Assembly: GCA_013178125.1 (NCBI GenBank)
Contig: JABLXJ010000013.1
Span: 7,751 to 71,750, forward strand
Length of the DNA: 64,000 nt
Source of the DNA: Bacillota bacterium
GTDB taxonomy: Bacteria; Bacillota; SHA-98; Ch115; JABLXJ01
Direction of reading: 5' to 3'
Position numbers and translations under genes: made by a program. The notes under the pieces were generated by a model. That model was not told the DNA's origin and searched no databases. It saw only the letters and a list, made by a program, of their open reading frames with translations. This document shows, one piece after another, positions 48,624-58,970 of the stretch. Positions within the stretch are counted from its first letter, which is position 1; each line of letters opens with the position of its first letter.

Positions 48624-48781
48624 CTAGGCCAGCTAGAGGGCCATTTCAGAAGCAAACATCCTGCTAAAGGCCATGTTGGAAAACAATAACAGTCGGTTTT
48701 AACCCCTTGGGGCCGTGGTACCCTAAACGTATCTCCCATTGTAAAAAATGGGAGGTTTTTACTTTGGCAAGGGCAAGGGTT

Positions 48782-49702
48782 ATGCGCATTGACAGGAAGG
48801 TAATCTCGACATGGCAGGAAGCCCTATCCGACTTTATCCTTTCCAGGCAAGCCATGGGTCTATCGCCCAGGACAATCAATGACTATCAGCAACATGTCAA
48901 GCTTTTCTTCTCCCGTTACCCTGACGCTTGGAACCCCTCAAATCTCAAACGAGCAGTGATGATGCACATGTCCCATCCTGTGGCACCCGCCACTTTTAAC
49001 AACCGACGGAAGTACCTGAAGATCTTCTTCAACTGGTGTATGGAGGAAGGCATATTCCCCGAAAACCCGTTGTCCAGAGTCCCAAAGAAGAGGGACGAAG
49101 GCCGGATCAGGGACATTAAAGCGGAGGTGCTTGAGCGTCTTATGTCCCTGCCAAACAAAAAGACCTACACTGGCCTGCGTGACTACGCTTTGATCCTCTT
49201 AAGTCTCGATATCGGGATCCGCCCAAGAGAAGCGTTATCTTTACTTGTGTCTGATGTTGACCTGGAAGGTAAGACGGTTACCATCAGGCGCGAGATATCC
49301 AAGACCAGGAAGACCAGTATCCTGCCCATTACTGAGCCGGTTGTCAATGCCCTGAAAAAGCTCGTTCATGTAAGACACCCCGTGTGGGATAAAGACGCAC
49401 CACTCTTCTGCACTAGAGATGGAACACCGCTGACAGTAAGAAGGTGGGAAGCAAGGCTCAAGAAATACTCAGACATCCTGGGAACGAGCGTCACTCCTTA
49501 CGATTTGCGCCACGGTTTTGCCACCTTGTTCTTGAGAGACGGAGGAAACGTATATGCTCTCCAGAAGATTTTACGTCACTCCAGTATGGATATGGTTAGA
49601 CGGTACTTACAATTTAACGATGAAGACATAAGACGACAGCATGAGCTTGCGTCACCTGTAGTGAGGCTCTTAACCAAGACGCCGAGGGTTGGTAAGATTT
49701 AG
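48782..49702 (+). CDS. Tyrosine recombinase / phage-type integrase
   Basis: N-terminal SAM-like domain and a catalytic domain with R...HxxR...Y (LRDYALILLSLDIGIRPREA; DLRHGFATLFL; LRHSSMDMVRRYL). Start moved to the ATG at 48782. Confidence 0.85.
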   Translation: MRIDRKVISTWQEALSDFILSRQAMGLSPRTINDYQQHVKLFFSRYPDAWNPSNLKRAVMMHMSHPVAPATFNNRRKYLKIFFNWCMEEGIFPENPLSRVPKKRDEGRIRDIKAEVLERLMSLPNKKTYTGLRDYALILLSLDIGIRPREALSLLVSDVDLEGKTVTIRREISKTRKTSILPITEPVVNALKKLVHVRHPVWDKDAPLFCTRDGTPLTVRRWEARLKKYSDILGTSVTPYDLRHGFATLFLRDGGNVYALQKILRHSSMDMVRRYLQFNDEDIRRQHELASPVVRLLTKTPRVGKI

Positions 49703-50456: not shown

Positions 50457-50847
50457 ATGCCCTCGTGTATACCTCCACTATTTGCTGGGCTCTTGCTGCA
50501 TAGTTGTGCTTCTCATAGACCTCCTTCTGAGCCTTTCTCGCTATTTCTTGCCTTTCTTCGCTGTCCATGTGGAGGATCATTTCCATCAGTTCTAAAGTCT
50601 CCTCTTTATTTTTTGCCTGGAATATGAGGTCGCCAAAGAGGTTCTCCTGGGCTTTGGTGTAGTGGGCGAGGAATAAACCTCCTCCGCATGCTAGGGCTTC
50701 ATACGGCCTCATGGAGGTCTGGGTCGCGGAAGTATCGTCGCAGTTCATCCCAAGGATGATTTTCGCTGAGCTATATACACAAGGAAGCTCCTCGTAAGGC
50801 AGTATGCCACCATAGATGTCCATATGTTTCGGATATGTTCCATTCAC
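50425..50847 (-). pseudogene. C-terminal fragment of a CgeB/GT1-type glycosyltransferase
   Basis: Only the C-terminal domain is present (SAKIILGMN..., RPYEALACGGGLF...). The 5' part is replaced by IS21 debris at about 50846. Confidence 0.5.
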
Positions 50848-51097
50848 GAAGACCGGAGCTGAGCTTCTCTATCAATTTTGCGCCAGCCGCTATGAGAGGG
50901 GCAGCATGATAGTCACCACAAACCTGGAGCTTAGCCAGTGGACGGAGGTGTTTGGGGATGAGAGAATGACAGCGGCACTTCTTGATCGGCTCACCCATAG
51001 GGCCCATATCCTGACTTTAAACGGGGAGAGTTATCGTTTCCGGGAGAGCATGCGTAAACAAGAGGTAGAACGTGAGATGTTGCACACGCCTGCCTAG
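50846..51097 (+). mobile_element. IS21-family IstB helper ATPase, C-terminal remnant
   Basis: ...GAELLYQFCASRYERGSMIVTTNLELSQWTEVFGDERMTAALLDRLTHRAHILTLNGESYRFRES matches the IstB C-terminus. There is no Walker A region and no istA. Confidence 0.65.
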
Positions 51098-51605
51098 GCG
51101 TAGCCTAGGCAGGGGGTGGATCCCATTTTCGTGTCCGCAGTGGTCCCCTTTTTGATTGCCAAACACACCGGAGTGGAGCAATATAAAGCGCGTTCATTAT
51201 GATCTCCTTCCGGACAACATTGGGTTCTGGTTCTCAGATGACTGTGGTTCTAATCCGCCAGATGGTTGAATTGGAAATGTCTTTCTTCTACCAGGATAGG
51301 AGCTATAATTCTCGAAGGCTGTTCTCGGATGGTTTACATCGAACACCCATTCGAGACCCATTCGAAGAGATAAAAACAGCTGGATTTAGTGAATGTAGAA
51401 GTTTACCTTGGCCATCAAGAAGAATTCCCTGGGGTGCTGCCGGAGGTTTTTGCAACGGTTTCTTCTGTGGTGAAAGAGGTTAAGCCGGGAGACATCTTAC
51501 CTATCACTGCCAGGGTTGATGAGGCGATGACACAGGATAGTCCGTCGGACGATTCGATTTGGGCAATCTATCTACCTAATCTGTACTGGAGGTTGACTGA
51601 CTCGC

Positions 51606-53798
51606 TTATTCGCTATCGAAGATACTGCGAAATATGGCCTCGAATTCGGAAACCTCTCTACCATTGAAGACGACTTTGGGGCACAAAGCAAGTATTTGGT
51701 CCCTCATTGTGATTAACTCGCAAGCCCGCAGTGCGCGTGTGGGTTTATCGACGCCGGTAACGCCGTTAGGGTAATAATCTTCGATTGCGCCTTTGGCAAG
51801 CACATTAATCCTGAGCTCTCTCAGGCGTTCAAGTAGCTCATACTTATCATGGAGTTCTGGGTGCCCTTTACGTAGGAGATTGCGACGCCTTGTCTCAGTC
51901 TCCTCAGAAAAAAGTAACTCAATTTCATCTGCCTCGTCATTGGTGATTTGCCTACCATTAGCAATTTCCCGTGCTAGATATTTTAATCTCTGGTATCTTT
52001 CCTGCCAGGTGTACTTACGTACCATCTCTTTGATCTTTTCCCTTGTCAGAGTCCCATCGATTCCTTCATCTTTTGCAATCTTGTCGATGACCTGGAGAAA
52101 TGCTCTCCTCTGATCAGCAACGTCTTCGGTAACCTCTAGTTTATCGAAATCTTCAAGAAGTGCATCTAGGTCAAGTATAGCATGCACCTCAAGCCCGAAC
52201 TTTTCAAAGAACTCTCTATACCTCGCCACATTCCCCTTTCCGTTGATCCTTATGAGGGGGATATTGCGTGCTTCGAAATCCCACTCCTCGTTTAGGATGC
52301 GGGCAACATGGGCTAAATAGATGGCATCGGAATCTCCCTCAACTAGGACGACCTTGCGGGCAAAAAATGCTGCAGAATTGTTCTCGTAACAGATCAGCTG
52401 AAAGGCATCCTTCCGGCGAGTATCATGTAGCAGATTAATCACCATTGGATTTCCATATGGTTTTGCATCGGGTGGGTGATCTTTTGCTAATTTGATGAAT
52501 GTTCCGGTCCCTGTAGGAGAAAAAAATAGTGGTGAGTGAGTGGTGACAACGACATGGTGCTGTTCCGAAAGCCTCGTTAAGGCTTTAAAAAGAATCCGTT
52601 GTCCTGACGGATGGAGATATAGTTCCGGTTCTTCAAAGAGGAATAAGTAATGTGGTCCAGAGGATCTCCTTAGTTGTTGATCTTCGGGCATTGGGGCCCT
52701 TTGCTTCATCTGCAAATCCACATAGCTCCTCAGCAGGGCGAAGGTTACTGACCTCTTGAGACCATCGCCTTTGGTCTCTACCACATCTCTGACACCATCA
52801 TCCACCATTATCTTCGTGCTCGAGAAGACCTGCTTCAGCTCGGGCGGTGGGATGTGTAGTTGTAAATCAACTGTTGGGAAGTTTTCTCTCAGATACGTCA
52901 GTACTTGGGATTCTATTTCCCTAATGTGCGGCAGGCGATTATCGACTACGGCACCATTTTCCGTTGATGTCCTATTGAGCATCGAATTGAGTTTTTCAAA
53001 GGATGCGGCAATCTCCTGAACCTCTACTGTACCCTCTAGCATCCTTAACAGGACACCAATAAGCTTACCAAAGGTTGCGGATTCCTTTATCTTGATTTCA
53101 TCCGTAAGATCCTTGACAGCTGGGATGTATATTGGCTCTGGGAGTAGCCTTTTAATGCTATTTGATATTCCTGTCGGCAGCGGTAAGTCACCCATGGTCT
53201 TTTCGCTCTCTGGTAAAGCTGTAATTATCTCCTGTATTTTCTCCTTTGCTGCCGATTGGGAGGTGATCCCAGCAAATTGGCTTTTGAATTCAGGTAAATG
53301 GCTTTCAAGGATATCCCTGATCTCAGAACCACGCTTGCCCTTCAGGATTTTATCTATAACATCAGGATCAAATCGCTTATCCTTTGGTACCGACCCTAGA
53401 TAGTAATAGTCAGATGAAGATCCATCGACACCATAGCATCTTACGAGTGTTAGTTCCTTATTGGCGACAATGCCTTCCACTCGATCCCTATGTTCGGGGG
53501 CAATCCGCTCTAGATCATCATCGGATATATCACTAAGCGTGACCTCAAATCTAACTGGTTGTGATGGATCATAGAAATCTGAGCTATCGATTCTGGAGCC
53601 GGAGAGAAATAGGCTGAGAGCAAGCAAAACTGTTGATTTTCCTGTATTGTTCTCACCAATTATGCAGACGAATGGGGAGAGATCAATGCGACAGTCCCTT
53701 AGGGCACGGTAGTTGGAGACATGGAGTCTGCTTAGATTCACGGGATTAACGCCTCCTAATAAGACATGCCATACCATTTTATCTTGATTGGATTGCAT
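51606..53798 (-). CDS. OLD-family nuclease (ABC-type ATPase fused to a Toprim domain)
   Basis: Walker A GENNTGKST, FEEPELYLHP (Walker B/D-loop), VVVTTHSP (H-loop), and Toprim VVLVEGDSDAIYL plus a downstream acidic cluster ILDLDALLED. Confidence 0.8.
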   Translation of the reverse strand: MQSNQDKMVWHVLLGGVNPVNLSRLHVSNYRALRDCRIDLSPFVCIIGENNTGKSTVLLALSLFLSGSRIDSSDFYDPSQPVRFEVTLSDISDDDLERIAPEHRDRVEGIVANKELTLVRCYGVDGSSSDYYYLGSVPKDKRFDPDVIDKILKGKRGSEIRDILESHLPEFKSQFAGITSQSAAKEKIQEIITALPESEKTMGDLPLPTGISNSIKRLLPEPIYIPAVKDLTDEIKIKESATFGKLIGVLLRMLEGTVEVQEIAASFEKLNSMLNRTSTENGAVVDNRLPHIREIESQVLTYLRENFPTVDLQLHIPPPELKQVFSSTKIMVDDGVRDVVETKGDGLKRSVTFALLRSYVDLQMKQRAPMPEDQQLRRSSGPHYLFLFEEPELYLHPSGQRILFKALTRLSEQHHVVVTTHSPLFFSPTGTGTFIKLAKDHPPDAKPYGNPMVINLLHDTRRKDAFQLICYENNSAAFFARKVVLVEGDSDAIYLAHVARILNEEWDFEARNIPLIRINGKGNVARYREFFEKFGLEVHAILDLDALLEDFDKLEVTEDVADQRRAFLQVIDKIAKDEGIDGTLTREKIKEMVRKYTWQERYQRLKYLAREIANGRQITNDEADEIELLFSEETETRRRNLLRKGHPELHDKYELLERLRELRINVLAKGAIEDYYPNGVTGVDKPTRALRACELITMRDQILALCPKVVFNGREVSEFEAIFRSIFDSE

Positions 53799-53977
53799 AT
53801 ACTATATTTCCATAACCAACCATAGATTCCTGCTTGAGGACCAGGCTGGCCATTACAGATTTTTAGATGGCCTGCACGTTACAGACAAAGATAGTCGCAT
53901 TCCCGCGCCCTTGGTTATTCTCTTTGCGTGTATGATCTCACGAATAGGCCAACCGTAAGATTCTCATTATCACAAAC

Positions 53978-54006
53978 TTGCGAGGTAGAAGGAAATGGCA
54001 TATATG
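53978..54006 (+). promoter_or_regulatory. Candidate sigma-70-type promoter for the retron transcript
   Basis: TTGCGA (53978-53983), a 17-nt spacer, then TATATG (54001-54006), about 20 nt upstream of the left inverted repeat. The -10 element is imperfect. Confidence 0.3.
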
Positions 54007-54025
54007 TGTCGAAATATGCAGATTA

Positions 54026-54185
54026 GTGAGGGCACTAGTTTTAGGGTCATTTTGCATAGGGCGTGGCCGTGTGCCGGGCGTTAAGCCAGGCCGTTGAATT
54101 GATAGACTTGTGGCCGCGCGGAAGTCCCTCGTCTACCCTCTCGGGTAGCCAAGGTCCTTCCGCGCGGCTCTTGTAGTGCCCTCGC
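54026..54185 (+). ncRNA. Candidate retron msr-msd non-coding RNA
   Basis: Perfect 10-bp inverted repeats GAGGGCACTA (54028-54037) and TAGTGCCCTC (54174-54183) flank about 136 nt. That interval contains a perfect 12-bp stem (54113-54124 / 54157-54168) with a nested hairpin CTACCC-TCTC-GGGTAG. Lies upstream of the retron RT operon. Confidence 0.6.
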
Positions 54186-54220
54186 CCAATTTCGTTAACC
54201 TAGTGAAATGGTGGGATGAT

Positions 54221-55162
54221 ATGCCCTTTGATAGACGCCTCTACCCTGAATCCCTTCTCATACAGGTTCGGGATCGACTCAAGCGGGGCCCGACCGTGAG
54301 TCAGGCGATCCCAAAGTTTCTATTCTTATGTGGCAGGCAATTTGATGCAGGCAGTGGCGCTGATCATATCACTAACCGCGAGTGGGTCATGGAGCACCTC
54401 GACCATTACGCGTCTAAAAACATATCCAGTATCGTGGTTCTATTTGCTGAGCAGCTTTGGATTGGACTTGATATAGATTTGCTGACTTTTGAACACTTTA
54501 TGGCCGGGATAAGCGATATGGTCCTCCTGTTTGTGGAGAGCTGGGGGACGGCGGCTGAGCTCGGAGCCTTTGCTTCCATTGACAGTCTGGTTGAGAAGAT
54601 GCTTGTCTACAATGACAAGAAGTACAGGGAGTCTAACTCATTCATAAACAACGGGCCTATCAAGAAGATTCGGGATTCCAACCCGCATGGCGTGGTCTTT
54701 GGTAATCTGGACTCCATATTCGAGAGCGGGGAGCTTCACGATGCGCTTACACATTTGGATAGCATAAGGAAGACTGTCAAACCCAACACGAGTAACAGGG
54801 TCGAGTTTGTGCCATTTTGTTTAGAGCTTTTGGACCTTATTGGCTTGCTGGGACCAGTTTTGAGGAAAGATCTGATCGAAATATATAAGTCCGTCAAAGG
54901 GTTCGGTAATTTCGACCTTGTACTACCATCGAGCACGTCTTCCATCAGTGCCGCGTTTGCACTTGATTTCCTCCAGATCTCTTCCTTAGCTTGGGAGTCA
55001 TCTGGATATCTACGGCTAAATACGAAGGCAGTAAGGAAAAACTTGTGTCTGCTTGACCTAAGTGACCATGAATTCGAGTGCCTGCGTGCCAAATTTATGG
55101 CCAGGAAGATGAGGTACATAGGCAGTTCCAATCTTCCCGTCTTTGAGGAAAGATCAGCATGA
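54221..55162 (+). CDS. Retron-associated effector candidate (unknown family; possible NDT/SLOG-like N-domain plus a C-terminal helical/DNA-binding-like domain)
   Basis: ATGA stop/start overlap with the RT gene. Motif VLLFVESWGTAAELGAF. The ATG at 54221 follows GGTGGGA; the ORF track GTG start at 54176 would overlap the ncRNA arm. Function is inferred. Confidence 0.6.
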   Translation: MPFDRRLYPESLLIQVRDRLKRGPTVSQAIPKFLFLCGRQFDAGSGADHITNREWVMEHLDHYASKNISSIVVLFAEQLWIGLDIDLLTFEHFMAGISDMVLLFVESWGTAAELGAFASIDSLVEKMLVYNDKKYRESNSFINNGPIKKIRDSNPHGVVFGNLDSIFESGELHDALTHLDSIRKTVKPNTSNRVEFVPFCLELLDLIGLLGPVLRKDLIEIYKSVKGFGNFDLVLPSSTSSISAAFALDFLQISSLAWESSGYLRLNTKAVRKNLCLLDLSDHEFECLRAKFMARKMRYIGSSNLPVFEERSA

Positions 55163-56124
55163 GCTTGATTGAAAGAATCAGTCGCTCCTTGGATATAGAC
55201 GAGAATCTTATTAAGACCATCGCCCGGACCAGCAACAAATACTACCGGGTGTTCTCAATTAGTAAGAAATTTGGCGGAGTCAGGTCGATATACCATCCCT
55301 CACCAATTCTAAAGGTATTTCAATATTGGCTTGTGCAGAATCTCATTTCTCACCTGCCTGTGTCGGAACATGCAACTGCCTATGGGCTTGGATGTTCCAT
55401 TAAGAGAAATGCCCAACTCCATGCTGCGGCCAAGCATATAGTCCGCATGGATGTTAAGAACTTTTTTCCATCAATAAGATTCCAGCTCCTAGCTGATAGG
55501 ATTAATGCCTTCAGGGATACTATCCCAGGCGGAGCATCTTTAACTGAGGAAGATCTTCAACTCATCAATGGCATTTGTTTTGTGCGGGGTAGGCTAGTTA
55601 TAGGCAGTGTCTGTGCTCCAGCAATTTCAAACGCGGTTATGTACCCGTTTGACTGCGAGGTCTCCCAACAGGCTAGAGCTTTGCATCTCACTTACTCAAG
55701 ATATGCGGATGATATCGTGTTTTCGAGTAATGAATGGATTCACCCAAGTATTGTCGAGGATATCGATGGCCGACTGGGCAAATTCGGCATGAAACTAAAT
55801 CGCGAAAAGACGATTTTTATGGGCGGCTCTGATCGGAAGATGGTAACTGGCATTTTGCTCAACACTGGTAGATTATCAATAGGAAGAGCGCGTAAGGAAA
55901 GCATCAAGAAGATGCTATATCAGAAACTGCGTACCGGTGCCGGTGATAATCGGAAGATCTTGGGATATCTAAACTATCTTAGGGATATTGAGCCTGACAC
56001 GTTCAATAGGATGGTGGTTAAGTATAACTCGTTCTTCGGTAGGAATATAATGCGCGTACTAACGGAAGCGCCAGCAGATACACGCAAGGCTCAGGCCGAG
56101 GCGGCTCCAACTAAGAAACCTTAG
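55159..56124 (+). CDS. Retron-type reverse transcriptase
   Basis: YYRVFSISKKFGGVRSIYHPSPILKVFQYWL, NAQLH (retron NAxxH), MDVKNFFPSI, YSRYADDIVFS (YADD), KLNREKT, and RKMVTGILLN (retron VTG motif). About 320 aa with no maturase or endonuclease domains. Confidence 0.9.
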   Translation: MSLIERISRSLDIDENLIKTIARTSNKYYRVFSISKKFGGVRSIYHPSPILKVFQYWLVQNLISHLPVSEHATAYGLGCSIKRNAQLHAAAKHIVRMDVKNFFPSIRFQLLADRINAFRDTIPGGASLTEEDLQLINGICFVRGRLVIGSVCAPAISNAVMYPFDCEVSQQARALHLTYSRYADDIVFSSNEWIHPSIVEDIDGRLGKFGMKLNREKTIFMGGSDRKMVTGILLNTGRLSIGRARKESIKKMLYQKLRTGAGDNRKILGYLNYLRDIEPDTFNRMVVKYNSFFGRNIMRVLTEAPADTRKAQAEAAPTKKP

Positions 56125-56433
56125 ACTAGTATGCAGTATTGGCAATAGCCCTAAAATGTTTATATACCGATTAGTGACAATTGATAGCCAAAACGATGAG
56201 ATCTTCTCGCCGGGCGCGAGATAGATTTTGTGTCTAGGCAGCCTTGCTCATTCAGGATCATTTGGCTCATTTAGATCAGAGTCTATAACGCCACGATGTC
56301 ACTAGCCGGGGGATTGCTCGATGGCCCCAGTCCATTCCTTGTTGCGGATTGATGATATTTTGTAGCATATTCACTGGCAGCTGAAGCGAAAAGCCTGAGA
56401 CGATTTCCTAGTTATCAATGCAATGCCGCCGGA

Positions 56434-56715
56434 ATGCTTATTGTTCCGCTAGCCGCCGCTGCCCATAATGCCGGATCAAAACGCATGGTGCTCACATCCT
56501 CTTTGGCCGTGTATGGGGATGTGGGGGGCCGCCGCTTAGCGAATCGGCATTTCCATCACCAGTTTCACCTTACGCATTTCTGGGCTTATATCAATAAGGC
56601 CGGGCGGATGCTTGGTTATGAGCCGAGGTTTAGCCTTGAGCAAGGCATCCTGGAGAAAGCGGAATGGCTTAGCTGTTTGGCGAAGTGCCGGGAGGAAGTG
56701 GCGGCGGGTTTGTGA
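56434..56715 (+). pseudogene. Degraded fragment of an NAD-dependent epimerase/dehydratase gene
   Basis: ...GSKRMVLTSSLAVYGD... and ...LGYEPRFSLEQGI... are separated by non-homologous sequence. There is no N-terminal Rossmann part. Confidence 0.45.
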
Positions 56716-57385: not shown

Positions 57386-57682
57386 ATGCCAAAGACGAAG
57401 CCACCATATCCACCACAGTTTAGAGCCGAGGCAGTACGCCTGGTACGCGAGAGAGGGAAACCCATGGCGCAGATCGCCGGCGACCTAGGGGTGTCAGTAA
57501 AATCGCTGCGCAAATGGACCAGACAGGCTCAGATTGATGCTGGAGAGCGTGAAGGGCTAACGACTGCCGAGCGGGAAGAGCTCAGCCGTCTCAGGCGAGA
57601 GAACCGGATTCTACGCGAGGAGCGTGAAATCCTAAAAAAAGCCGCGGCCTTCTTTGCCAAGGAGACCGGCCGGAACCGGTAG
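57386..57682 (+). CDS. IS3-family transposase OrfA (HTH)
   Basis: MPKTKPPYPPQFRAEAVRLV..., a leucine-zipper-like C-terminus, and the frameshift heptamer inside the ILKKAAAFF region. Confidence 0.85.
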   Translation: MPKTKPPYPPQFRAEAVRLVRERGKPMAQIAGDLGVSVKSLRKWTRQAQIDAGEREGLTTAEREELSRLRRENRILREEREILKKAAAFFAKETGRNR

Positions 57683-58527
57683 CGGCGTTCCGGTTCGTCG
57701 AGCGTGAGAAGGCCTGTCACAATGTGACCATACTATGCTGGGTACTGGGCGTCTCCACCAGCGGCTACTATGCGTGGCGTAAAAGAGGCCCGTCGGGTCG
57801 TGCACGGCAAGACGCTGAGCTTATAGAACACATCATACGGATTCACGAGGATAGCCGGGGCACTTACGGGGCCCCGGGGATCCATGCGGAGCTTACCATG
57901 GGGATGGGGATCCACTGCTCGAGAAAACGGGTGGCACGCCTGATGCGTGAGGCAGGTCTCATAGGCGTCGTCGGCTTCGGGGTATGACACGCCGCAATCC
58001 GGCTCAGGAACCTGCGCCGGACTTGGTAGAGCGGCAATTTACACCGGAGGCTCCCAACCGTCTGTGGGTGGCTGATATGACAGAACACGCTACGTGTGAG
58101 GGCAAGCTGTACCTGGCAGTCGTAACCGAGGCATTTTCGCGGATGGTCGTAGGTTGGTCAATGGGAGACCGCCCGGTCGCGGATCTGGCGGTCGATGCGG
58201 TGAATATGGCCGTCTGGAACCGTAGACCCGAGCCTGGGGTAATTCACCACTCAGATCACGGGCACAGTATACTGCCATAGCATTCGGTCGCACTCTCAAA
58301 GAGGCGGGTATCCTCGGCTCGATGGGTACGGTTGGTGACGCCTTAGATAACGCGGTGGCTGAGAGCTTCTTTGCCACACTCGAAACAGAACTACTCGACC
58401 GATACAACTGGTCCAGTCGCCAGGCGCTAGCCTCGGCCATCTTCGAATACATCGAGGGCTTCTATAACCGCAGGCGCCGTCACTCGACGCTCGGATACTT
58501 AGTTTCCATTGAAAAATGGACCTCACA
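57640..58527 (+). pseudogene. IS3-family transposase OrfB, broken by at least two extra frameshifts
   Basis: The -1 frame after A7G reads ...FRFVEREKACHNVTILCWVLGVSTSGYYAW. The integrase core is split over three frames (57724-57987, 57984-58280, 58322-58527). Confidence 0.75.
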
Positions 58528-58610
58528 AATATGCATGGCGACAGGCATTTACTCTCCCACAAATGCCCCATTTGATGGTATGATAGAGCTATGCAGAGAA
58601 GGGGAGAGTA

Positions 58611-58970
58611 ATGCTGAGATCTGAGAATAAAATCGCCTATCAACTGAGCCTGGTGGACCAATGGCTGCCTAAATCATACTTCTCTCTCCCGGAAGAACTC
58701 CGAAAGGTGGATGAGCTACTCTCTGATGAGAGGTTCATTGAGCCTTTAAAAAAGCACTTCTCCACCACCTGCGGTAGGCCCGGTACCCCCGTAGTTGTAT
58801 ACCTTCGCATGATGTATCTTATGAACAGCTTTGAAAGGAAGTTGCCGATAGCATCACCTGGCGCAGGTTTTGCCATATCCAGCTCGAAGATGATGTACCC
58901 GACTCCACCCTGGCCAAACTCACTAAAAAGTTCTTACCGCGCAAACCTCAGGGATGAGTCTGTCAGTTAA
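58611..58970 (+). pseudogene. N-terminal fragment of an IS5/IS1182-type transposase (DUF772-like)
   Basis: ...LPEELRKVDELLSDERFIEPLKKHFSTTCGRPGTPVVVYLRMMYL... then loss of frame. A shifted frame continues ...DDVPDSTLAKLTKKF.... Confidence 0.5.

Follow-up and report, generated by a model that had tools for sequence, protein, structure and literature searches.

The + strand open reading frame between GTG 54176 and a TGA stop whose last base is 55162 (328 codons in the ORF list of the window, the whole 64,000-nucleotide stretch of DNA analysed here) is an intact, ordinary member of the RcaT / retron St85-family effectors (type II-A; NF038232, PF28093). We hold with high confidence that a complete type II-A retron, arranged in the order ncRNA, effector, reverse transcriptase (RT), has this protein as its effector, and that it acts as its characterised relatives do. 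Within this reading, the results computed here cover membership of the family, the fold, the conservation of the catalytic residues, the organisation of the operon and covariation in the ncRNA. A preliminary description of the same DNA had presented the frame as a retron-coupled effector of unrecognised family, with an active-site-like motif and a small helical C-terminal module.

Operon structure and gene boundaries

The proposed coupling to a retron was borne out at both ends of the frame: its stop codon overlaps the ATG of the RT gene as ATGA at 55159-55162, and the frame is immediately preceded by a retron-type ncRNA. GTG 54176 is the mechanical longest-ORF start and falls inside the a2 arm of this ncRNA. 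We place the effector gene at 54221-55162 (+ strand; 313 aa), with the likely start at ATG 54221 (Met16 of the 328-aa frame), on three grounds: the N-termini of relatives align with Met16 (with an invariant Leu at position 28); a Shine-Dalgarno site, GGTGGGA, stands 6 nt upstream; and, counted from this start, residues 4-6 onward of the AlphaFold2 (AF2) model are the aligned counterparts of Ec86 effector residues 1-3 onward. The effector also starts 20-40 nt after a2 in related loci. Given this start evidence and the overlap with a2, the first 15 codons of the longest ORF (54176..54220, + strand), which cover part of a2 and the spacer, are probably untranslated. The public gene call, a protein of 288 aa from GTG 54296, probably lacks 25 residues at its N-terminus, given that the codons upstream of 54296 encode conserved residues whose fold is predicted with confidence. 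At 313 aa against ~305 aa in relatives, the effector is full length.

The retron ncRNA (msr-msd) spans about 160 nt at 54026..54186 (+ strand), with presumptive exact ends. It folds with z = -3.9 relative to shuffled sequences, and none of 200 shuffles folded as well. Its a1 arm, GAGGGCACTA (54028..54037, + strand), pairs at 10/10 positions with the a2 arm, TAGTGCCCTC (54174..54183, + strand), and two small hairpins plus a long stem-loop lie between them. The msd stem-loop at 54113..54168 (+ strand), the predicted template of the msDNA hairpin, has 26-nt arms, 12 bp of perfect pairing and a nested CTACCC/GGGTAG hairpin. Just after a1 comes G 54038, which we take to be a candidate branching guanosine, following the general retron pattern of a1 and then the priming G. 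The same layout was found upstream of the effector in three other, unrelated metagenomic loci; in all four (the window and the three related loci) the last bases of a1 are CTA and the next base is G, and the arm sequences differ yet stay complementary. RNAalifold applied to the four ncRNAs recovered the a1/a2 helix, with two pairs changed on both sides, that is, covariation. The MAFFT/RNAalifold consensus misaligned the msd stems, which vary in length and sequence, and an inverted-repeat search together with single folds was more informative there.

Searches for known elements around the ncRNA returned little. An Rfam scan of 53300-56700 gave no retron RNA family (MEG8_3 alone appeared, at a chance-level E = 9), and the msd was found to contain neither GATC (Dam) nor CCWGG (Dcm), the single CCAGG at 54086 being located in an msr hairpin, outside the msd. 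An msr hairpin of the form GGGCG-YTAAGCCAG (54076-54090) is common to the window and to one related locus (L003), and a related loop, GATAAACCAGG, is present in another (L005); the RT of this retron subgroup may use the hairpin for recognition. A promoter pattern scan upstream of the ncRNA gave no + strand site; TTGCGA-17-TATATG near 53978-54006 was seen by eye and is weak, and we claim no promoter.

The RT gene (55159..56124, + strand; 321 aa) encodes the motifs NAQLH (84), YADD (182) and VTG (229). Its product scored 265.5 bits against NF038233 retron_St85_RT (cut-off 235), matched the Pfam family RVT_1 at 1.8e-21, and had RT_II-A as its best PADLOC model (1.1e-78, compared with 5.7e-33 for I-B). 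In 4/4 related loci fetched, the RT gene likewise follows the effector gene. A weak terminator-like hairpin with a T-rich tail lies 3' of the RT gene at 56205..56221 (+ strand); it comes from a pattern scan in which the number of sites was not above that in shuffles.

Genomic context and the neighbouring OLD nuclease

The retron operon looks intact within an integrase-bounded island that contains IS debris and broken genes. Flanking the retron and a divergent OLD-family nuclease gene are a tyrosine integrase gene (48707-49702), an IstB-like fragment (50816-51097) and a decayed IS3-type element (57386-58624), which mark a mosaic mobile island. GC content is 44-51% within 51000-56500 and up to 59% outside. 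With the effector protein as query, no match was found in 40 relatives, and the St85-family effector model matched nothing in a sample of 300 further genomes from the host phylum, nor in 14 control genomes. St85-family effectors thus seem rare in the host lineage, and the absence of the family from the 300 sampled phylum genomes leads us to regard the retron as probably acquired horizontally on the integrase island.

The same surroundings could be taken to mean that the retron is a decaying, non-functional remnant in a degraded mobile island, given the IS debris and broken genes around it and a distribution that would make it a recent and dispensable acquisition, missing from the 40 relatives and the 300 phylum genomes searched. 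We consider this highly unlikely in view of the state of the operon itself: the effector is full length and keeps every residue that is invariant among its relatives, the RT is full length with its YADD, NAxxH and VTG motifs, the a1 and a2 arms pair at 10/10 positions, and the ATGA coupling of the two genes is intact.

Divergent from the retron lies a gene for a 730-aa OLD-family ATPase-Toprim nuclease (51606-53798, - strand; AAA_15 and OLD-like_TOPRIM), and a further reading would make this nuclease the real effector or a co-effector of a composite type I-B-like or hybrid retron. The two units have a short divergent intergenic region in common (53799 to about 54025), ATPase-Toprim proteins serve as effectors in type I-B retrons, and the nuclease weakly matched the PADLOC model ATPase-Toprim_I-B (2.5e-17) and NF038234 (46.5 bits). 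This last score is, however, far below the cut-off of 250 for the Eco8 effector model, and among PADLOC models the stand-alone Old scored best, at 8.9e-96; the RT is of the II-A/St85 kind and not I-B; and the upstream gene varies among related retron loci (AAA_22, AAA_13, integrase) and is never an OLD nuclease. On model scores, RT kind and related-locus neighbours we rejected the nuclease as a retron partner and judge such a role extremely unlikely. No partner gene of the nuclease was evident at the locus. Since it fails the Eco8 retron-effector model and is not a neighbour of the retron in related loci, it is probably an independent defence gene, and two independent defence genes in one island is the likelier description.

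Related retrons were also seen in other settings. One, with an effector (P0012) about 41% identical to that of the window, lies just downstream of a phage-type integrase (locus L005, 193-5678, and also L006), and beyond it are genes for ThyX, a dCTP deaminase/dUTPase and ribonucleotide reductase, which suggests that the P0012 retron is carried on a prophage or other integrative element. Another (locus L004, 154-2271) has a gene for a 705-aa AAA_13 ATPase directly upstream on the same strand, so that its defence-type neighbour is not the one seen in the window, the OLD nuclease.

Family assignment of the effector

Compared by HMM with St85-family effectors, the protein scored 136.4 bits against NCBIfam NF038232 'retron St85 family effector protein' (STM3845_fam, an equivalog model), above the curated cut-off of 100, with the match spanning residues 46-242 only; the family is therefore a recognised one, contrary to the preliminary description. 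A whole-genome search with NF038232 gave the same result, the effector being present once in the genome. Two PADLOC NDT_II-A models also matched, at 8.6e-39 and 7.3e-30, the second over residues 49-312 and nearly the whole profile, and together with these models the matches to the Ec86 effector upheld the proposed role as the retron effector. In a phmmer search of PDB sequences the sole match was the Retron-Ec86/Eco1 effector (7e-12), represented by two sequence variants (wild type and E106A), in which ESWGTAAELGAF of the window effector is aligned to ESPGSFTELGAF of Ec86. All four plasmid matches from tblastn (4/4) fell under genes annotated 'retron St85 family effector protein'.

The effector family is large, as an exhaustive profile search gave 2188 representative relatives (cluster representatives) at E <= 0.001; the 7 relatives returned by a word-based homologue search therefore do not reflect rarity. 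The nearest relative found is a metagenomic protein, 46% identical. Pfam PF28093 'STM3845' is recorded for the effector's relatives in public data, and the Pfam-A copy that we searched was without PF28093, which explains why its best match to the effector, TXNDC16_2nd at E 0.06, was at chance level. No Pfam NDT family matched the effector at E <= 1 in Pfam-A, and the similarity to canonical nucleoside deoxyribosyltransferases (NDTs) is at the level of fold only. As for the LOG/SLOG group, the effector motif reads ESWGTAAE where the LOG type reads GGxGTxxE (PGGxGTxxE), and there was neither a Pfam match to LOG nor a LOG structure among the best 50 fold matches, though a family missing from such a list may still be related.

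Predicted structure

Structure prediction and fold searching, which the preliminary description had put forward as a check, returned an NDT-like fold and a full-length match to the Eco1 effector. The AF2 model of the effector, built from an alignment of 101 relatives, had a pLDDT of 94.6 and a pTM of 0.92. When the whole model was submitted to Foldseek, the significant matches were three Retron-Eco1/Ec86 effector entries only, at E values of about 1e-12 (among them 3e-12). VIA-align superposed the model on the Eco1/Ec86 effector with Z 13.6-14.7 over 266-270 residues, pairing model residues 4-302 with chain residues 1-296. The next fold matches, namely nucleoside deoxyribosyltransferases, DNPH1, MilB and TIR-like proteins, had Z of about 9-10.8 and were confined to residues 29-185. 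In Met16 numbering, the model divides into a predicted NDT-like domain at about residues 29-185 and a predicted winged-helix domain at about residues 186-300.

The C-terminal third, which includes LELLDLIGLLGPVLRKDLIEIYKS (residues 216-239 of the 328-aa frame, nt 54821-54892), had been described as a small helical, winged-helix-like module, and the model agrees with this. Modelled alone, the C-terminal 128 residues reached a pLDDT of 92.8, and DSSP assigned to this domain a helix, a helix, a short strand, a helix, a beta-hairpin and then a long C-terminal helix. Its best VIA match was the C-terminus of the Eco1 effector (Z 7.6 over 101 residues, rmsd 3.7 A), and its other VIA matches were largely winged-helix proteins (PadR, MarR, RosR, histone H1, ORC); such modest Z values are in keeping with the small size of the domain. 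Foldseek gave nothing at E <= 0.001 for the C-terminal domain alone. As modelled, the C-terminal third is a winged-helix module with a putative DNA-binding role. The orientation and assembly of the predicted domains may differ from those of Ec86, because the two effectors are only about 21% identical and superpose over the whole chain with an rmsd of about 6 A.

There is virtually no chance that the frame is the first of a novel class of retron effectors with no relation to the NDT plus DNA-binding type, an idea raised in the preliminary description for the case that the protein lay outside that known family. The absence of a significant Pfam-A match and a word-based search that returned 7 proteins only could be cited for it, but it is refuted by the PADLOC (NDT_II-A), NCBIfam, Foldseek and VIA-align results, with 2188 relatives, PF28093 on the matches and the full-length Eco1 effector fold standing against it, and a score above the cut-off of the curated St85-family effector model places the protein in the known family.

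Catalytic residues

Nine residues are invariant in the 101-sequence alignment (F35, G38, R53, E77, E91, E113, F117, F141 and G145, in Met16 numbering), and S107 and S140 are nearly so. The predicted catalytic triad, F35/E91/E113 (F50/E106/E128 in the 328-aa frame), matches the triad F28/E85/E107 of the Sen2 RcaT toxin (10.64898/2026.10.13.758329), and the 22-residue gap between the two triad Glu is the same in both proteins. The codon of the presumed catalytic Glu (E128, or E113 from Met16) lies at 54557..54559 (+ strand), and those of its partners F50 and E106 at 54323 and 54491 (+ strand), respectively.

The segment MVLLFVESWGTAAELGAF (residues 115-132 of the 328-aa frame, nt 54518-54571) had been likened to the signature of NDT or SLOG-like folds, and HMM, Ec86 alignment and fold identify the ES-GT--ELGAF segment as the active-site signature of the NDT-like domain of type II retron effectors. 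Its ESWGTAAELG stretch contains two Glu, of which E128 (in AAELG) occupies the column of E106, the residue proven to be catalytic in Ec86, and the 8QBL chain, which carries E106A, differs exactly at this column. Counted from the sequence alignment, S107, E113 and S140 correspond to Ec86 S100, E106 and S133, which are reported to be conserved and needed for defence, E106 having been compared with LlNDT E98 (10.1101/2023.08.16.553469). E77 might be the counterpart of Ec86 E65, but only after a 5-residue gap in the alignment is shifted, as phmmer puts E77 beside Ec86 D69/D70.

Comparison with characterised systems

Type II retrons are defined by an effector with an NDT-like and a DNA-binding part (PMC7736814), and they are the most abundant retron family, RcaT being the most prevalent retron effector (10.64898/2026.10.13.758329). 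The closest structural counterpart is Retron-Eco1 (Ec86; type II-A3; PDB 7V9X, 7XJG, 8QBK, 8QBL, 8QBM), whose effector has the same combination of NDT-like N-glycosidase and C-terminal winged helix, has the ES-G---ELGAF motif in common with the window effector, with the catalytic Glu aligned, and is likewise encoded beside a retron RT and an msr-msd RNA. The two differ in sequence, at about 21% identity, and in that the window msd is without a CCWGG Dcm site. They also differ in gene order: in Eco1 the order is ncRNA, RT, effector, whereas in the window the effector precedes the RT.

In this last respect the locus resembles Retron-Sen2 (St85), which encodes RcaT (type II-A1; STM3845) and is likewise ordered ncRNA, effector, RT (10.64898/2026.10.13.758329). 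Both the effector and the RT of the window pass the St85 models, and the F/E/E triad is conserved in the effector. In contrast to Sen2, the C-terminal domain of the window effector is more diverged, as judged from the NCBIfam match, which covers residues 46-242 only; the msd is without a GATC for Dam-type triggering; and the host is not an enterobacterium. Among enzymes from outside retrons, NDT, DNPH1 and MilB N-glycosidases have the same Rossmann-like fold as residues 29-185 (Z 9-10.6), with the Glu nucleophile on an equivalent helix, but unlike them the window effector has an additional winged-helix domain and is coupled to a retron. The substrate of the characterised relatives is NAD(P)+ and not deoxynucleosides (PMC12673091).

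Proposed mechanism

Two experimental precedents frame how the system may work. In Retron-Eco1, RT-msDNA and the N-glycosidase effector form filaments, and phage Dcm methylation of the msDNA leads to NAD(P)+ hydrolysis and ADP-ribosylation (PMC12673091; 10.1101/2023.08.16.553469). In Sen2, RT-msDNA sequesters an RcaT dimer until Dam methylation of the msd GATC frees RcaT to form toxic tetramers, and dimeric RcaTs defend although they are non-toxic (10.64898/2026.10.13.758329).

At the sequence level, the locus has every part that this scheme needs; msDNA synthesis, sequestration, trigger, chemistry and defence phenotype would follow those of the characterised relatives. The C-terminal winged-helix domain of the effector would be the site at which the RT-msDNA complex binds and keeps the effector inactive; a phage protein that modifies or destroys the msDNA would then free or rearrange the effector. 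The NDT-like N-glycosidase domain (F35/E91/E113) would hydrolyse NAD(P)+ and ADP-ribosylate, as in Eco1, or would be directly toxic, as is Sen2 RcaT, and the infected cell would shut down in abortive infection. The trigger may differ from the Dam/Dcm methylation of Sen2, Eco9 and Eco1, because GATC and CCWGG are both absent from the window msd. Its place could be taken by some other phage methyltransferase, by a nuclease or by an SSB that targets the GC-rich msDNA stem; less likely, the retron may cooperate with the OLD nuclease. We offer this tentatively, as a somewhat doubtful departure from the known pattern.

Significance

The structures of RcaT retrons have been solved and their mechanisms tested already, and the discovery value of this member is accordingly small. 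For annotation, the analysis identifies the type II-A retron as complete, places the effector start at 54221 (and not at 54176 or 54296), and supplies coordinates for the ncRNA and the position of the catalytic Glu. As a diverged member of its family, the effector could be useful for comparing toxicity and oligomerisation among RcaTs, or the system could be used as an additional retron for msDNA-based editing.
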